A DNA stretch of 18,142 nucleotides from Thainema sp. (GTDB taxonomy: Bacteria > Cyanobacteriota > Cyanobacteriia > Phormidesmidales > Phormidesmidaceae), in assembly GCA_052168235.1 (NCBI GenBank), contig JBQLZK010000099.1, positions 1 to 18,142 of the forward strand, written 5' to 3'. Position numbers and translations under genes: made by a program. The notes under the pieces are model-generated. The model ran no database searches. It was not told where the DNA came from and was given only the letters and a program-made list of their open reading frames with translations. Positions 7,878-15,029 of this stretch are shown here, one piece after another (position 1 is the first letter of the stretch; every line of letters starts with the position of its first letter).

Positions 7878-9374
7878 ACACGACTTGGCAATCTTCTCAT
7901 TTTTAGAGCTAGAGAGAATCATGGCTTAAGCAGGCATGAGCACCTCCACGACTTGCGCAACCGATTGGCCCTGGGCAAAGAGTGACTGGCATAGCTGCAC
8001 GAGGGGATGAAAGGCTTGGCGAGTCAATCCATAGAGCTTCTGGCCAATGCTTGGCGTTGTGCTTGCAAAGCTCAACTTTTCAGATGTTCCCCCAGCCACC
8101 GGAGCAGTCTGGAGGAACGACTGCGCCAAGCAACTTAAACAGACGTGGCGGTTGACCGCATCCTCGTTGCGGAGCTGAGCCGATTCCAGGCCACAGATGG
8201 CTTTGGTAAACTCATGAAAAATCTCACAGGGCCAGCGATAGCTCCAGGTGATGGCAATGCGCTAGACATCCCAGTGTAGGGCATCGGTCACTAAAAAGCG
8301 GGGGGAATCGGTCAATTCCTGGGTTTGATGAACAATGACAATCCGTTTGCGTCCGATTGTCTTGAGGCGTACGACTTTGCTAAAGGCCCAAATCTCTTTC
8401 ACTTCGCCGTTGCGTTGGCGGATACGGTAATGCCGAAACAACTGGGCAGATTCGGTACGAAGCTGGTGAGCCACTTGGTCAATACGAGTCCATTGGTTGT
8501 GCCAGAGACCGAGCGATTATAGGCCAGTTCACTCACCCAATGCTTCCCCAACCCCTCAATGAGAGTCGTTAACTCTGCCGCACACACGCCTGCATCAAAG
8601 GCATAATCGGCGGTGGGAAACTGCCCTTCTGCTTCGATTTGCCTGACCATCGCCATCAGGAGTTCTGTGCGGGTTTGATACGCCTCTCGATTCCGCTGGT
8701 AGGCGACCAACTCACTCAATCGCTCCATCACGGCGGCGATACTGTCGTACTCGTCTGGATGAGTCATCGTCAGATAGTCCAGTTCTTCGGCTTCCCATTT
8801 GGCCGCTTGCACGGCTACCGCTATGCCATCGTGTCGCTCTCGATTGGCGACCACGGCAGTCAGAATCGTCTGATAGTGGCTCATGCATCCCTGGACATAA
8901 TCGTACTGGCGTTTGACTCCATAAATTTGTTTGCCCCGTTCATGATGCCCCAATGTCCAATCTAGGCTAATCACCAAGCGCTCGGTCTCGCTATGCTGCT
9001 GCCCCACCTGCTGACGGTAGCGCGTCATTAACGACTCCCACTCCCACGGCGACTCGAAGACCCCAGCGGGCATCGCTCGGCGACCGGAGAGCGGGCGTTC
9101 TTCTGTCGAAACAAACTGGCTGTCAATCCCTTGCAGGGTTTTGTTCTCGCTCAGCAGTAAACCGCTGATGTATCGGCTGACATGCTCAAATCCGGCTTGA
9201 CGAGCAAAGAGATCTCGGTAGGCCGCCATCCCGGCTTCAATCGTGCTGGGTATCCCGACTAGTGGAAGCATCGGTTTCTGCGGTGTTTAACTCTACTATC
9301 TGCATCATCGCTGATTGCGATCGCTCCTAGAGACACATCTTCGGTTTATCTCACTAAACTTTGCCAAGTTGTGT
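7878..9374 (-). mobile_element. IS701-family insertion sequence (about 1.5 kb), inactivated
   Basis: Terminal IRs ACACGACTTGGCAA (7878-7891) and TTGCCAAGTTGTGT (9361-9374) match at 13/14 and enclose a DDE transposase. No matching target duplication is visible. Confidence 0.75.
7926..9271 (-). pseudogene. IS701-type DDE transposase pseudogene
   Basis: YISGLL..NKTLQGI, LDWT, FDAG and YRWPCEIFHEF motifs are split across ORFs by a frameshift near 8505 and an in-frame TAG at 8262-8264. Confidence 0.8.
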
Positions 9375-9870: not shown

Positions 9871-10174
9871 AGGGATACACCTGATGCTCAGGGTGGGCTT
9901 GGCTGAGCCGAGGCTTGGGATAAATCGCCTCCAACCCGAGTTGGCGCATCAACCGTTGAACTCGTTTGCGATTGACTACATAGCCTTGCTGACGCAGCAC
10001 AACAGCCATCCGACGACTGCCATAAAACGGCGTTTTCAGGTACTGCTGGTCAATCAACCGCAGTAGACTCAACTCCTCATCCGATGAACCTTGAGCTTGA
10101 TAGTAGAAGCTCGAACGGGCTACCTTGAGCAGTTCACATTGGCGGCTAATCGTTAATTGGGGATGGTCAGTCAC
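9871..10174 (-). pseudogene. IS3 OrfB N-terminal fragment with no DDE integrase core
   Basis: LTISRQCELL..ARSSFYY, PFYGSRRM, VNRKRVQRLMR..GLEAIYPKP; ends at ..HQVYP where the inverted left end starts. Confidence 0.85.
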
Positions 10175-10494
10175 GACCAGGGCTTTTCGGGCTTTAGCCC
10201 CAACTGTGCTGACCTGGTGGCTAAAAAATCCCGTTCCACCTTCAACTGGCCAATCTGTCGATACAACTCGTCTAGTTGAGCCTGCTGATTGGTCTGGTTG
10301 TTTTTGGCTGTCTCCGTGCCCTTCTCAAACAGGCTGCTGGCTCCCTCCGTTAACTGTCTTTTCCAGTTATTGATGACGGTGGGATGCAGTTGATACTGGC
10401 TGGCCAGTTCGGAGGTTGTCTTCTCCCCCCGAACCGCTTCTAAAGCCACTCTGGCCTTGAACTCTGAATTGTACTGCTTGCGTTTGTTGCTCAT
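10171..10494 (-). CDS. IS3 OrfA (HTH)
   Basis: KRKQYNSEFKARVALEA...LYRQIGQLKVERDFL. An in-frame T_TTT_TTA -1 slippery site (10222-10228, minus strand) opens into OrfB. Confidence 0.9.
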   Translation of the reverse strand: MSNKRKQYNSEFKARVALEAVRGEKTTSELASQYQLHPTVINNWKRQLTEGASSLFEKGTETAKNNQTNQQAQLDELYRQIGQLKVERDFLATRSAQLGLKPEKPWS

Positions 10495-11150: not shown

Positions 11151-11190
11151 CAGCCCCCGCTTTTAGTGATCAAAAGCGGGGCTGTTTTGT
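11151..11190 (+). terminator. Intrinsic-terminator-like hairpin directly ahead of the HNH ribosome binding site
   Basis: CAGCCCCCGCTTTT-AGTGATC-AAAAGCGGGGCTG followed by TTTTGT, then GGAGG at 11191. Confidence 0.7.
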
Positions 11191-11200
11191 GGAGGAAAGA

Positions 11201-11734
11201 ATGATGCCCGTTCGACAACAGAGCCAATCATCTTCAGTCTTACAGCGCCAGGTAGTGGTGTTTTCTAAAAACTACCTGCCGCTGATGCGAATCAATACCA
11301 AGCGTGCGATCGCACTTCTGGTCACAGGTCAAGCCGAAGCCCTTGATTTTGGGAATGCTCAGCAGTGGCAAGTCCGCTCACCCAATCTTGTACTACAGGT
11401 TTCTGAGCACATTCGCTTGGTGGGTAGTAATCCCGAACGGCAGTGGAAAGTGCCACCCGTTAACCGTCGGGAAGTCTTCCGCCGCGATAACCACACCTGC
11501 CAGTACTGCGGCAGCACCAAGCACCTGACGATTGACCACGTCATTCCCCGCTCCAAAGGCGGTACCCATACTTGGGATAACGTTGTCGCTGCTTGTAGTA
11601 CCTGTAACTCGGCCAAGGGCGATCGCTTACTGCATGAAATCAGCATGACGCTCAAGAGCAAACCCAAGGCACCTATCCATCCTGCGATCGCATTTGCCGA
11701 GCAGTTCTGGATCGAAAACGATTGGAATTCATGA
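11201..11734 (+). CDS. McrA-like HNH endonuclease associated with the tRNA array
   Basis: RD..CQYCG...TIDHVIPRSKGG...WDNVVAACSTCN..KG motif; GGAGG RBS precedes the ATGs at 11201 and 11204. Confidence 0.93.
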   Translation: MMPVRQQSQSSSVLQRQVVVFSKNYLPLMRINTKRAIALLVTGQAEALDFGNAQQWQVRSPNLVLQVSEHIRLVGSNPERQWKVPPVNRREVFRRDNHTCQYCGSTKHLTIDHVIPRSKGGTHTWDNVVAACSTCNSAKGDRLLHEISMTLKSKPKAPIHPAIAFAEQFWIENDWNS

Positions 11735-12175: not shown

Positions 12176-12246
12176 GCCACCTTTAAAGATTGTGGTTTTC
12201 TGGATGTGAGAGCGGAACGCTCACAACCCGAAAACCACTACTACTT

Positions 12247-12322
12247 GGGGATGTAGCTTAGTCCGGCTCAAAGCAGTCGCCTGTCGAGCGAAAGATCGTG
12301 GGTTCAAATCCCATCATCCCCG
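12247..12322 (+). tRNA. trnD: tRNA-Asp(GTC)
   Basis: Acceptor GGGGATG/CATCCCC, loop CT-GTC-GA, T-loop TTCAAAT. Confidence 0.92.
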
Positions 12323-12325
12323 TGT

Positions 12326-12399
12326 AGCCGTGTGGACGACTAGATAAGTCGCTGTGATTCTCAGTCACAGAGAAGCGAGTGCAACTCTCGTCACGGCTT
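12326..12399 (+). tRNA. trnE: Atypical tRNA with CTC (Glu) anticodon
   Basis: Acceptor AGCCGTG/CACGGCT, loop TT-CTC-AG, T-loop TGCAACT, D-loop lacks GG. Confidence 0.7.
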
Positions 12400-12464
12400 T
12401 ATTGCCTTCAATGTTTTTTGTTGTGTGAACTTAGCCCACACAACAAAAAACATTGAAGGCAATA
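12400..12464. repeat. Perfect 28-bp inverted repeat spacer
   Basis: TATTGCCTTCAATGTTTTTTGTTGTGTG, 9-nt loop, exact reverse complement. Confidence 0.9.
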
Positions 12465-12468
12465 CTGA

Positions 12469-12544
12469 CTCCAGGTCGCCAAGTGGGAAGGCATTGGTCT
12501 GCAAAACCGATTACTCGCGGGTTCGATTCCCGCCCTGGAGTCCA
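12469..12544 (+). tRNA. trnC: tRNA-Cys(GCA)
   Basis: Acceptor CTCCAGG/CCTGGAG, loop CT-GCA-AA, U discriminator, CCA. Confidence 0.92.
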
Positions 12545-12549
12545 ATCAC

Positions 12550-12625
12550 TGCAGCGTAGCTTAACTGGCAAAGCCCCAAGTTCATACCTTGGTAATTGCG
12601 GGTTCAACTCCCGCCGCTGCGACCA
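12550..12625 (+). tRNA. trnM: tRNA with CAT anticodon (Met; Ile2 not excluded)
   Basis: Acceptor TGCAGCG/CGCTGCG, arm CCAAG-TTCATAC-CTTGG, CCA. Confidence 0.85.
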
Positions 12626-12728
12626 GTGCCTAAATATATTTTTGAGCAAGCGAGGTGCTTTGCGAAAGCAAGTCACAAATTTAGTCTCTGCATTCTACGG
12701 TGTCTTTCACAGTAGAACGCTTAATCCT

Positions 12729-12805
12729 GGTGCCGTAGGCAAATTGGTAAAGCCACAGGTCTTTCACACCTGCGTTTGCGGGTTCAACTCCCGTCGGCAC
12801 TGCCA
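12729..12805 (+). tRNA. trnE: tRNA-Glu(TTC)
   Basis: Acceptor GGTGCCG/CGGCACT, loop CT-TTC-AC, CCA. Confidence 0.92.
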
Positions 12806-12815
12806 ACTTTTTTGT

Positions 12816-12900
12816 GGGTCGGCTCGCCTATTGGCGTAGGCAACGGTCTGTAAAACCGCCGCATATTGCGTTGCTGGTTCAATTCCAGCCCGGCCTACCA
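12816..12900 (+). tRNA. trnY: tRNA-Tyr(GTA)
   Basis: Acceptor GGGTCGG/CCGGCCT, loop CT-GTA-AA, long variable arm, CCA. Confidence 0.9.
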
Positions 12901-12981
12901 ATTATCGAACACGTGATCTTTGCGCGGCAGTGCCGCGTCAAGACTCACTCAAAACATCAAGCACGAGTTGACAAGAACAAT

Positions 12982-13062
12982 GGAGAGTAAACCGATTAGG
13001 CAATCGGCGCTGTTTGCTAAACAGATGGATGAACAATTGTGGTTCGAGTCCACTGCTCTCCG
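12982..13062 (+). tRNA. trnS: Atypical tRNA-Ser(GCT) with extended D-stem
   Basis: Acceptor GGAGAGT/GCTCTCC, D-arm CCGATT-AGGC-AATCGG, loop TT-GCT-AA. Confidence 0.8.
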
Positions 13063-13120
13063 CCTTCATCTAACTTTACGAAAGGCTTGCCCCGCAAGCT
13101 TTTCATAAACAAATCAGCAT

Positions 13121-13198
13121 GAGGACGTGGTGTAACTGGATAAACATCTCAGACTACGAATCTGAAGAGTGGGGGTTCAAGTCCCTCCGTCCTTGCCA
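13121..13198 (+). tRNA. trnR: tRNA-Arg(ACG)
   Basis: Acceptor GAGGACG/CGTCCTT, arm TCAGA-CTACGAA-TCTGA, CCA. Confidence 0.92.
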
Positions 13199-13202
13199 AT
13201 TT

Positions 13203-13288
13203 GGAGAGTACCGCTGAATGGTCGGCAACTGGTCTTGAAAACCAGGGTAGCTCTCGGGCTAGGGGTTCGATTCCTCTACTCTCCGCCA
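13203..13288 (+). tRNA. trnS: tRNA-Ser(TGA)
   Basis: Acceptor GGAGAGT/ACTCTCC, arm CTGGT-CTTGAAA-ACCAG, long variable arm, CCA. Confidence 0.9.
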
Positions 13289-13291
13289 AAT

Positions 13292-13412
13292 GGGAAGTTG
13301 GTGAAGCTGGTGCTCACGTGCCGCTGTTGGCGAAGCCTGTCCAAAGGACATAGACGGCGAGATGGCAGTTCGTTCGCAAAGCGTCTCCGAAGGAGAATCC
13401 TGTCACTTCCCA
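13292..13412 (+). pseudogene. tRNA gene interrupted by two 24-nt inserts (anticodon loop and T-loop); possibly the former tRNA-Phe
   Basis: Acceptor GGGAAGT/ACTTCCC and D-stem GTGA/TCAC. Removing 13327-13350 and 13373-13396 restores the 7-nt loops CTGTAGA and TTCGATC. Confidence 0.8.
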
Positions 13413-13481
13413 CTCAGGTGGTCTTTAATTTCTGGTTGCATGGGTTCCACTCAATCAGAAGTTGAAAACTATCCCATTCGT

Positions 13482-13557
<76 letters not shown>

Positions 13558-13613
13558 TTGATTTAACTGTGAAAAGCTTGCTGCGCAAGCTTTTCACAAA
13601 ACACAGATATCAC

Positions 13614-13690
13614 TGCCGAGTAGACGACATGGAAAGTCGCTGTGACTCTGAATCACGGAGATGCTAGTTCGAATCTAGCCTCGGCATCCA
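13614..13690 (+). tRNA. trnQ: tRNA-Gln(CTG)
   Basis: Acceptor TGCCGAG/CTCGGCA (U1-A72), loop CT-CTG-AA, CCA. Confidence 0.9.
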
Positions 13691-13691
13691 A

Positions 13692-13763
13692 TGCCCTGTG
13701 GTGTAACTGGCAACACCCCGCCCTTTGAAGGCGTAGTTCTAGGTTCGAATCCTGGTGGGGCAG
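13692..13763 (+). tRNA. trnQ: tRNA-Gln(TTG)
   Basis: Acceptor TGCCCTG/TGGGGCA, loop CT-TTG-AA. Confidence 0.88.
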
Positions 13764-13872
13764 TTGGGAGGTAAACAGTCGCCTGGGTCAAATTGCTGCG
13801 CGCCTCCCATTTCATAAAAAGGATAGTGTGTCGCGTGCGATGCACACGACACACTTCACAAAACAGATTTTT

Positions 13873-13946
<74 letters not shown>

Positions 13947-14050
13947 CTGTGGCGATAGTTATTAGATTCAGGTCTTTTACGGAGCGGTTAGCCATTCCAT
14001 AAAAGACCAATCCAAATTGCGATCGCAACTATTACAACTACCGCAACTAT

Positions 14051-14123
14051 CGGGATGTAATTCAGTGGTCAGAAGCCTTGGTTTGGGACCAAGGAGTCGT
14101 AGGTTCGAATCCTACCGTCCCGA
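14051..14123 (+). tRNA. trnP: tRNA-Pro(TGG)
   Basis: Acceptor CGGGATG/CGTCCCG, loop TT-TGG-GA. Confidence 0.92.
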
Positions 14124-14138
14124 TTTATCCATCCTCAG

Positions 14139-14216
14139 GCACCGGAGGCGGAAGTGGTGGACGCGCACGCCCGATAAGCGTGTTACTAGCAGGTTCGACT
14201 CCTGCCCGGTGTACCA
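14139..14216 (+). tRNA. trnI: tRNA-Ile(GAT), with non-canonical C33 and A8
   Basis: Acceptor GCACCGG/CCGGTGT, arm CACGC-CCGATAA-GCGTG, CCA. Confidence 0.82.
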
Positions 14217-14271
14217 CTTGATGGGGTTGTATCTGAGCCATACGTGGCTCAGATACAACCAGGCTGGATGA

Positions 14272-14343
14272 GGGTCGTTGGCAGAGCGGATATGCAGCCG
14301 CCTTTTAAGCGGAGAGATCCAGGTTCAACCCCTGGGCGACCCA
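14272..14343 (+). tRNA. trnK: tRNA-Lys(TTT)
   Basis: Acceptor GGGTCGT/GCGACCC, loop CT-TTT-AA. Confidence 0.9.
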
Positions 14344-14345
14344 CT

Positions 14346-14420
14346 GGATTTTGGATTGGCGATTTTGGATTGCGGATTCTGCCCCCTTATTCAAAACCTA
14401 AAGTCATCGATCCGAAATCC
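14346..14420. repeat. Degenerate heptamer (GATTTTG/AATCCAA, STRR-like) fold-back repeat
   Basis: GGATTTTGGATTGGCGATTTTGGATT ... ATCCGAAATCC. Confidence 0.65.
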
Positions 14421-14425
14421 CCCTT

Positions 14426-14498
14426 GGGCTGTTAGCTCAGTTGGCAGAGCAGCCGCCTCTTAAGCGGAAGCGAGTAGGTTCGAAACCTACACAGCCCA
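14426..14498 (+). tRNA. trnK: tRNA-Lys(CTT)
   Basis: Acceptor GGGCTGT/ACAGCCC, loop CT-CTT-AA. Confidence 0.92.
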
Positions 14499-14501
14499 CT
14501 T

Positions 14502-14555
14502 GGATTTTAGATTTTAGATTTTGGATTGTGCCCACCAATCCAAAATCTAAAATCC
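14502..14555. repeat. Heptamer (GATTTTA/G, STRR-like) fold-back repeat
   Basis: GGATTTTAGATTTTAGATTTTGGATTG...CAATCCAAAATCTAAAATCC. Confidence 0.8.
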
Positions 14556-14559
14556 TTAA

Positions 14560-14633
14560 GCCCCTGTGATGCAAACGGTAGACATAGCTTGCTTAAAACA
14601 AGTTTGTTGCGAGTTCGATTCTCGCCAGGGGTA
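14560..14633 (+). tRNA. trnL: tRNA-Leu(TAA), intronless, short variable region
   Basis: Acceptor GCCCCTG/CAGGGGT, arm GCTTG-CTTAAAA-CAAGT, variable region TTGTT. Confidence 0.86.
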
Positions 14634-14634
14634 T

Positions 14635-14710
14635 TGCGGGGATGGAGCAACAGCGGCTCGGAAGGTTCAACCCTTCAAATCAGTGAGTGCAATTCTCACC
14701 CCCGCGACCA
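14635..14710 (+). tRNA. Aberrant initiator-Met-like tRNA with a 6-nt anticodon loop (pseudo or non-canonical)
   Basis: Acceptor TGCGGGG/CCCCGCG-A-CCA, D-stem GAGC/GCTC, arm GAAGG-TTCAAC-CCTTC, T-loop TGCAATT. Confidence 0.65.
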
Positions 14711-14713
14711 AAT

Positions 14714-14788
14714 GCTGGTGTGGCTCAACGGTAGAGCAACTGTTTTGTAAACAGTCGGTTGCAGGTTCAAATCCTGTCACCAGCCCCA
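14714..14788 (+). tRNA. trnT: tRNA-Thr(TGT)
   Basis: Acceptor GCTGGTG/CACCAGC, loop TT-TGT-AA, CCA. Confidence 0.92.
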
Positions 14789-14791
14789 TTT

Positions 14792-14865
14792 GCGAACGTG
14801 ATGTAGCGGTAGCATCTGAGTCTGCCAGTCTCAGCGTATGGGTTCAAATCCCATCGTTCGCTCCA
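14792..14865 (+). tRNA. trnG: tRNA-Gly(GCC)
   Basis: Acceptor GCGAACG/CGTTCGC, loop CT-GCC-AG, U discriminator, CCA. Confidence 0.9.
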
Positions 14866-14866
14866 A

Positions 14867-14941
14867 AGTCCTGTAGCTCAACGGGAGAGCAAGCGCCTTA
14901 CAAGCGAGAGGTTGCGGGTTCAAATCCTGCCAGGACTACCA
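14867..14941 (+). tRNA. trnV: tRNA-Val(TAC)
   Basis: Acceptor AGTCCTG/CAGGACT, loop CT-TAC-AA (anticodon stem has only 3 Watson-Crick pairs), CCA. Confidence 0.87.
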
Positions 14942-14948
14942 AAATTAC

Positions 14949-15022
14949 GGGAGTGTCGCCTAATGGATGAGGGCATCGATCTTCTAAATCGATAGGTGTA
15001 GGTTCGAATCCTACCACTCCTG
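14949..15022 (+). tRNA. trnR: tRNA-Arg(TCT)
   Basis: Acceptor GGGAGTG/CACTCCT, arm TCGAT-CTTCTAA-ATCGA. Confidence 0.92.
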
Positions 15023-15029
15023 CTAGTCC

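Follow-up and report, generated by a model that had tools for sequence, protein, structure and literature searches.

The window analysed here, an 18,142-nt stretch of contig JBQLZK010000099.1 from the cyanobacterium Thainema sp., carries a long tRNA gene array (L-array) in which the gene between trnS(TGA) and trnN(GTT) is interrupted by two 24-nt inserts, one in the anticodon loop and one in the T-loop (Table 1). In the intact 121 nt, no tRNA was called by ARAGORN or by the Rfam tRNA model, and excision of a single insert gave no plain tRNA call with ARAGORN. When both inserts were excised in silico, a 74-nt ARAGORN call was obtained (a 73-nt cloverleaf plus one base), in which all stems were paired, the variable loop had 4 nt and the anticodon was GTA. 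An earlier note, made from the letters of this sequence without database searches, had proposed that precise removal of the inserts restores a complete cloverleaf, which our analysis bears out; its coordinates, sequences, 24-nt lengths and fold layout for both inserts were exact. Based on the comparisons described below, we consider it probable that two copies of a 24-nt mobile element resembling the cyanobacterial repeat SDR5 inserted, at the DNA level, into a redundant tRNA-Phe(GAA) gene of the array.

Table 1. Coordinates of the interrupted gene, its parts and its neighbours in the window
Feature	Position	Strand	Basis or remark
L-array, long tRNA gene array	12246..15023	+	ARAGORN: 22 tRNA genes plus the interrupted gene, in 2.8 kb; gene order kept in related arrays
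Interrupted tRNA-Phe(GAA) gene, 121 nt (73-nt body and two 24-nt inserts)	13292..13412	+	Excision in silico and intact orthologues
5' part: acceptor 5' strand, D arm, anticodon-stem 5' strand, loop C32 U33 G34	13292..13326	+	ARAGORN cloverleaf after excision; orthologue alignment
Insert 1, SDR5-like, subtype GGC/GCC + TGTCC/GGACA, between G34 and position 35	13327..13350	+	Anticodon loop
Junction base T at tRNA position 35; A in empty genes	13351..13351	+	Orthologue comparison
Middle part: remaining anticodon loop, anticodon-stem 3' strand, 4-nt variable loop, T-stem 5' strand, T-loop TTCG	13351..13372	+	ARAGORN cloverleaf, alignment
Insert 2, SDR5-like, subtype CGC/GCG + TCTCC/GGAGA, between G57 and A58 (TTCG|ATC)	13373..13396	+	T-loop; clean insertion
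3' part: T-loop ATC, T-stem 3' strand, acceptor 3' strand, discriminator A	13397..13412	+	ARAGORN cloverleaf, alignment
trnS(TGA), upstream neighbour	13203..13288	+	ARAGORN; G013 orthologue has the insert 1 subtype in its D-loop
trnN(GTT), downstream neighbour bounding the slot	13482..13557	+	ARAGORN; order in related arrays
HNH endonuclease ORF (open reading frame) directly upstream of the array	11189..11734	+	Pfam HNH_5 and HNH, E about 1e-17

Each insert consists of TT followed by a 3-bp stem with a 3-nt loop and a 5-bp stem with a 3-nt loop. The two are identical at 18 of 24 positions, with two of the differences being compensatory stem changes, and, with up to 3 mismatches allowed, their consensus matched just these two sites of the window, where 200 shuffles gave an expectation of 0.00. 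Target duplication is absent at both, as the earlier note had observed, and insert 2 starts with TTCG, the same four bases that precede it.

With the region as query, we screened 41 related genomes and annotated the loci that matched best, and an exact 22-nt anchor in the D arm retrieved 39 further stretches from named assemblies, some of them plasmid-borne, with hosts including Leptolyngbya, Oculatella, Myxacorys, Pantanalinema, Phormidesmis, Scytolyngbya, Nodosilinea, Stenomitos, Elainella and others. Four retrieved loci duplicated sampled genomes and were left out, giving 41 non-duplicate arrays. The gene order of the array was common to genomes G001, G012, G013, G034 and G037, and in G037 and G013 an intact tRNA-Phe(GAA) gene occupies the slot bounded by trnS(TGA) and trnN(GTT). 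Among the 41 arrays, 27 have an intact 73-nt tRNA-Phe(GAA) gene in this slot, six have insert 2 only, four have insert 1 only and four have both, so that the guess in the earlier note of a Phe gene, otherwise missing from the array, proved right. Apart from the A-to-T change at position 35 and sites that vary among arrays, the body in the window matches these 73-nt GAA genes. Because the empty orthologues read CTGAAGA in the anticodon loop (TTGAAAA in G013), the interrupted gene is a tRNA-Phe(GAA) gene with a short variable arm.

The base at position 35 was T in all eight non-duplicate arrays with insert 1 and A in all 33 without it. Because T35 follows every copy of insert 1 and A35 is found wherever insert 1 is absent, the apparent GTA anticodon is a secondary by-product and an artefact. 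The earlier note had thus read the excised anticodon correctly, but GTA is not ancestral, the empty genes having GAA. This bears on the idea, also raised there, that the inserts are removable micro-introns, cut from the array transcript before the tRNA halves are religated (for example, by RtcB) into a functional tRNA: removal of insert 1 would leave GTA on a Phe body with a short variable arm, not the ancestral GAA.

Several filled and empty loci are otherwise almost the same. For example, locus L054, with insert 2, and L073, which is empty, have flanks 99.3% identical over 715 nt and identical gene bodies, and L076 (insert 2) and L081 (empty) have flanks 98.0% identical over 684 nt. L054 and L076 are two arrays of one genome with near-identical copies of insert 2, and their nearest relatives elsewhere are empty. 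With filled and empty flanks so nearly identical, movement must therefore have been recent, and these clean before-and-after pairs, up to 99.3% identical in their flanks, show it directly. SDR-type repeats rank with the smallest mobile elements that have been proposed.

On a locus tree, obtained by a quick maximum-likelihood analysis of 632 columns from the flanks and from the bodies without inserts, and with 17 of its 37 inner branches unresolved, insert 1 required at least seven state changes and insert 2 at least eight. All eight copies of insert 1 have one hairpin type, TGTCC/GGACA, and the T that follows; a 1-nt deletion allele of insert 1 is common to G034, L083 and L089, which are separate on the locus tree; and in G012, insert 1 and the adjacent TAG lie on a body otherwise like the empty G013 gene. 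The single hairpin type, the shared T, the scattered deletion allele and the G012 mosaic suggest that insert 1 may have arisen once and then passed between alleles by recombination. A wider form of this explanation, in which each insert arose once and then moved, through short-patch recombination, among trnF alleles of arrays that were co-resident or exchanged, would also fit the many state changes on the tree and the near-identical insert 2 of L054 and L076, and we give it rather less than an even chance. Insert 2, however, is more variable, with a compensated TCCCC/GGGGA stem in L066 and L070 and with 25-nt forms, and these stem and length variants fit separate insertions equally well; in addition, the locus tree is poorly resolved and the family clearly transposes to unrelated sites. 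Conversion between alleles complements the insertion of mobile elements at the DNA level rather than competing with it. Insert 2 was present in 10 of 29 arrays with the T-loop TTCGAT(C/T) and in none of 12 with TTCAATC, a distribution, among mutually related arrays, that is suggestive of its occurrence tracking the DNA letter G57.

The inserts belong to a dispersed family. The pattern TTSGCNNNGCSTSTCCNNNGGASA had 117 matches in 29 of the 41 related genomes, with 1 to 16 per genome, and the reversed control had none. For analysis of the flanks, six identical-looking copies at contig ends in G018 were left out and one duplicate context was collapsed, leaving 110 distinct copies. In these, the variable stem positions were complementary (3-11 in 107 copies and 13-23 in 109), and the loops varied freely, with both GAA and TTC present. 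A search with HIP1 flanks only (GCG-TT-N21-A-ATCGC) gave 291 matches, the controls giving far fewer; in the 150 matches listed, we found the same build with CAC/GTG, CCC/GGG, TGC/GCA, TGGCC/GGCCA, TAGGC/GCCTA, TCACC/GGTGA and TCTCG/CGAGA, and a hand tally of these 150 gave at least eight types of the first stem and at least nine of the second, each compensated. The Thainema genome itself has few copies beyond the two in trnF. One, at C11:17493-17516 (L001 1994-2017), lies within an exact HIP1 and in frame in a gene for a periplasmic-binding protein (Peripla_BP_2), where it adds eight residues absent from five homologues and leaves the ORF open; another, at C136:879, is also within an exact HIP1. 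The variation extends to nesting: in L089, from a Scytolyngbya metagenome-assembled genome (JAHHIA010000001.1), a second 24-nt element with a GCCCC/GGGGC stem sits in the loop of the second hairpin of insert 1. In G018, one variant recurs in eight identical copies close to the ends of contigs, in five cases at positions 60-83 (C23, C44, C146, C158 and C171); this variant is probably embedded in a larger repeat, possibly the end of an insertion sequence.

The fold alone is no marker of the family, because the Thainema genome, scanned for the bare 3/3/3+5/3/5 fold, yielded 269 hits where about 230 were expected and thus no enrichment, and a scan of the same genome constrained to RAA loops gave nothing new, its hits being mostly an unrelated abundant palindrome. 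The lack of enrichment in the fold scan is what one would expect if the inserts were not mobile at all and represented local hairpin expansions or chance similarity. However, this reading is refuted by the dispersed copies and the filled and empty pairs, and with 117 sequence-specific matches against none in the controls, precise filled and empty sites, and a copy nested within another, it retains almost no probability. Both other genomic copies (117) and empty orthologous sites (27 of 41) having been found, the mobility proposed in the earlier note is upheld, as is its placing of the inserts among SDR-type mini-elements, the family having a 24-nt length, dispersed copies, a two-hairpin fold and, in 21 of 110 copies, the HIP1 bond as its site.

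The 110 copies share a landing site. Position -1 is G in 108 copies, so that the G preceding both trnF inserts, which the earlier note had remarked on, reflects a rule of the family; at position -2, C or T is found in 108. A occupies position +1 in 85 copies and T does so in 15, and position +2 is A or T in 105. Exact landing at GCG|ATCGC, that is, in GCGATCGC split after its third base, was found in 21 copies, and 12 more were at one mismatch from it, whereas the other 77 were at non-HIP1 sites, including T-loops, heptamer repeats and others; neither trnF insert is at HIP1. The landing motif is best summarized, from these alignments, as YG|AW with HIP1 as its best case, a motif that the 77 non-HIP1 sites fit as well, and the same YG|AW junction occurs in ORFs, heptamer repeats and HIP1 octamers.

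Copies within tRNA genes number 17 of the 110, eight in the sense and nine in the antisense orientation. The sense sites are the trnF anticodon loop, the trnF T-loop, the trnS D-loop and a HIP1 at the stem-loop junction of the anticodon arm of tRNA-Ala(CGC), whereas all nine antisense copies are in T-loops, across six different tRNA genes. Read along the element, the junctions are TCG|AAC, TCG|ATC, TTG|AAC or CTG|AAG, all compatible with the motif. T-loops are hit in both orientations because T-loop DNA is nearly palindromic and resembles the HIP1 core, so that the target rule YG|AW explains such hits either way round. For example, in a small tRNA cluster located roughly 2.5 kb from rtcB, one gene of G001 bears an antisense element in its T-loop (C33:49869-49892; L048), and the orthologous site in the Thainema genome (G000, C38:26012-26085) is empty, with that tRNA scoring 47.6 bits with Rfam. 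We also found tandem tRNA-Ala(CGC) loci in L030 (G003:C12, about 1314000-1314300), L039 (G013:C136) and L040 (G015:C454). In L030 and L040, an intact tRNA-Ala(CGC) gene, which contains HIP1 naturally, lies beside copies or fragments with an SDR5-like element at HIP1, and each of these two loci includes one or more copies with an antisense element in the T-loop; no intact tRNA-Ala(CGC) copy was called by ARAGORN in L039. As a further feature of the cluster near rtcB, ARAGORN predicted at C38:26305-26377 of the Thainema genome a tRNA with the anticodon CTA (labelled Pyl), which would read the amber stop codon, and the gene in the corresponding place of the G001 cluster was called Arg(CCT).

The earlier note had proposed, as one route, insertion at the RNA level, in which the RNA of the element would be ligated into cleaved tRNA loops, and the chimera reverse transcribed and recombined into the gene. 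The four hits in single-stranded tRNA loops (anticodon, T and D) and the covariation of the stems, which implies that a folded single strand matters, would agree with this. However, 9 of the 17 tRNA-embedded copies are antisense to the tRNA, the YG|AW junction is also found in ORFs, heptamer repeats and the DNA palindrome HIP1, and insert 2 tracks G57 (10 of 29 arrays filled, against 0 of 12 without it). The antisense copies and the junctions outside tRNA genes argue that insertion targets a DNA sequence rather than tRNA molecules, and ligation into cleaved loops followed by reverse transcription appears very unlikely; a looser model, in which an RNA copy of the element is reverse-transcribed into a DNA target, is possible.

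In this light, the series of events at the locus may have been as follows. The host would be a horizontally mobile long tRNA array. The element lands one way round at YG|AW(Y) without target duplication. Genes for tRNAs are natural targets because the T-loop TTCG|ATC mimics the HIP1 core, and the anticodon-loop site CTG|AAG fits the looser motif. Insert 1 may have come first and later spread among the alleles of the array, with recombination or gene conversion as the probable means, and insert 2 may have been gained or lost recently and repeatedly. The interrupted gene is redundant and most likely yields no decoding tRNA any more.

A number of observations weigh against insertion of a mobile element at the DNA level into a gene that has since lost its function. 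First, the base after the element is changed repeatedly: where the empty site is known or can be deduced, A has become T in the trnF anticodon loop, the trnS D-loop of G013 and the T-loop in G001, as well as in trnS(GCT) of G037 (unchanged in G034) and one tRNA-Ala copy of G003, and in tRNA-Trp of G034 the base has become G. This recurrent A-to-T footprint, predicted by no simple cut-and-paste model, is one that any proposed mechanism must account for. Second, the anticodon-loop target in trnF is not HIP1-like. Third, a mobilising enzyme was not identified, the profile Y1_Tnp being non-discriminating because it is found in 35 of the 41 genomes whatever their element load (G035, for example, has four copies of the element and no Y1 hit). 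Fourth, the bodies show little decay, with a stem mismatch in 2 of 14 filled genes and 1 of 27 empty ones, and the doubly filled genes of G000 and G001 differ by a compensatory T-stem pair, with all three differences between their inserts in loops. The pattern in G000 and G001 could reflect continued selection on the RNA fold, and could equally result from recent conversion from intact alleles and frequent flipping of hairpin loops.

A related strain, about 95% identical, occurs in one DNA run and in three metatranscriptome runs from a single study of biofilms. Every run has one contig that covers positions 12728-14052 without a break, with both inserts and no joint; its depth was 216-917 for RNA and 24 for DNA. 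The unspliced 121-nt form is thus present in RNA libraries, and because DNA may contaminate a library, the contigs are no firm proof of transcription. No contig of the three RNA runs and one DNA run skips 13327-13350 or 13373-13396, contigs being prone to drop rare variants and the libraries not being of small RNA. In the biofilm strain (runs X2-X5), 223 nt of the array are missing at window positions 12300-12524 and replaced by 25 other bases, and one spacer has 101 different bases at 12625-12728; arrays thus differ by cassette-like indels. The minimum free energy fold of the 121-nt RNA has -42.4 kcal/mol, against -35.7 kcal/mol for a cloverleaf with four hairpins, a comparison that is uninformative for tRNAs.

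These data bear further on micro-introns. All body stems are intact in 12 of 14 filled genes, filled alleles differ in a compensatory way, and RtcB is found in all six array-bearing genomes against 7 of the 35 others, the 41 genomes being mutually related; in the available text of the report on Anabaena, rtcB is co-regulated with the tRNA array, or trn operon (PMC8421152). Selection on body and insert stems, acting because the array transcript is processed around the inserts, for example through excision and religation by RtcB, would produce such a pattern, and we regard it as most improbable. If it were true, the inserts would be the first micro-introns of bacteria to be found in the T- and anticodon loops of tRNAs, or would act as a switch silencing a stress-induced tRNA until repair. 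In addition to the GTA left by removal of insert 1, however, the element occurs antisense in T-loops, in ORFs and in repeats, where splicing would be senseless, the element-bearing tandem tRNA-Ala(CGC) copies beside an intact copy are pseudogene-like, and the RNA-library contigs show the unspliced form only. Micro-introns thus appear possible but unlikely, with a very slender probability, and the proposal in the earlier note went unsupported, a rare spliced form being possible. Bacteria are not known to have a pathway for tRNA micro-introns of this kind.

The co-occurrence with RtcB that the earlier note had suggested looking for holds for the arrays, and links RtcB to these and not to the inserts, a distribution that fits the co-regulation of rtcB and the trn operon reported from Anabaena. 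The array copy of trnF is dispensable because a housekeeping tRNA-Phe(GAA) gene is present elsewhere in the genome, on C27, and it is likely that the interrupted gene has lost its decoding function. Insertion of the element gives a concrete cause for some of the pseudogenes in cyanobacterial tRNA arrays.

The small dispersed repeats (SDRs) SDR1-8 of Nostoc punctiforme and its relatives were reported by Elhai, Kato, Cousins, Lindblad and Costa in Genome Res 2008, in which SDR5 is said to occur solely within HIP1 and RNA intermediates are said to be favoured for the mobility of SDRs. A Nostoc flagelliforme plasmid has 60 GCG-N21-ATCGC matches (13 in the control), at least 15 of which represent one 21-nt element that differs from the window element at one position of its first 11 nt and has a shorter, different second hairpin; we regard it as SDR5 on account of its length and of the bond at which it lands, rather than from a comparison with the published SDR5 consensus. 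In the available texts, SDR5 inserts between the third and fourth bases of HIP1, GCG|ATCGC (PMC4390886), and has a length of 21 nt (PMC13756078, 2026). The window family shares with SDR5 its tiny size, a two-hairpin fold kept by compensatory changes, the lack of target duplication, the HIP1 bond (used exactly by 21 of 110 copies), copies in heptamer repeats and nested copies. In contrast, it has 24 nt rather than 21, has a longer second hairpin (5 bp), is not confined to HIP1, which in exact or one-mismatch form accounts for only 33 of 110 copies, YG|AW being the general target, and lies inside tRNA gene loops. Its hosts also differ, including Leptolyngbyaceae, Oculatellaceae and other non-heterocystous lineages and not heterocystous Nostocaceae only. 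Judged by these features, the window element appears to be a 24-nt relative of SDR5 with a looser target and another host range. According to a 2018 summary of the 2008 survey, as far as its available text goes, SDR-like repeats were not found outside Nostocaceae (PMC5861425), and an element of this type well outside that family implies a host range wider than the summary gives. A literature search, in the portions of text that it returned, turned up no paper that deals with SDR-type repeats within tRNA genes or with such repeats in Leptolyngbya-like cyanobacteria.

Comparison with other known systems gave partial likenesses. Short hairpin elements moved by single-strand transposases, namely REP/REPIN with RAYT and derivatives of IS200/IS605 (PMC3116915, available text), resemble the window element in their short hairpins, orientation-specific insertion by a short fixed sequence and lack of target duplication, whereas the window element is much smaller and has no evident associated Y1 transposase. 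Cyanobacterial L-arrays are described, in the accessible part of PMC8421152 (2021), as undergoing frequent insertions, duplications and deletions, with 3 of 26 genes being pseudogenes in Anabaena. The array in the window is similar in its more than 20 dense tRNA genes, the HNH gene upstream, the patchy and often plasmid-borne distribution, the occurrence of some pseudogenes and the presence of RtcB in the genome, but mini-repeats in tRNA loops as a cause of pseudogenes, proposed here, go unmentioned in that part of the source.

Introns interrupt tRNA genes in other organisms, bacterial group I introns lying in anticodon loops and archaeal bulge-helix-bulge introns also at non-canonical positions. 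The trnF inserts resemble these in the interruption of the anticodon loop and, for archaea, in the use of T or D loops. However, 24 nt is far too short for a group I core, no splicing was seen, and the window element also occurs antisense and outside tRNA genes.

The HNH ORF upstream of the array, an arrangement likewise annotated on Nostoc plasmids, is context for the array, and no link to the inserts is implied. Farther upstream of the HNH gene and the array, transposase remnants (DDE_5 and HTH_Tnp_1) were found on the minus strand at 8399-9271 and 10171-10494, consistent with an array located in a mobile region. Within the array, the spacers at 12407-12457 and 14506-14558 gave spurious Rfam miRNA hits only, and another spacer contains, at 13567-13598, a copy of an abundant, unrelated palindromic repeat with a hairpin stem of about 14 bp, TTTGTGAAACGTTTGC-NNN-GCAAACGTTTCACAAA and variants, which is present at dozens of sites in the Thainema genome, such as C17:82416 and C2:3499.

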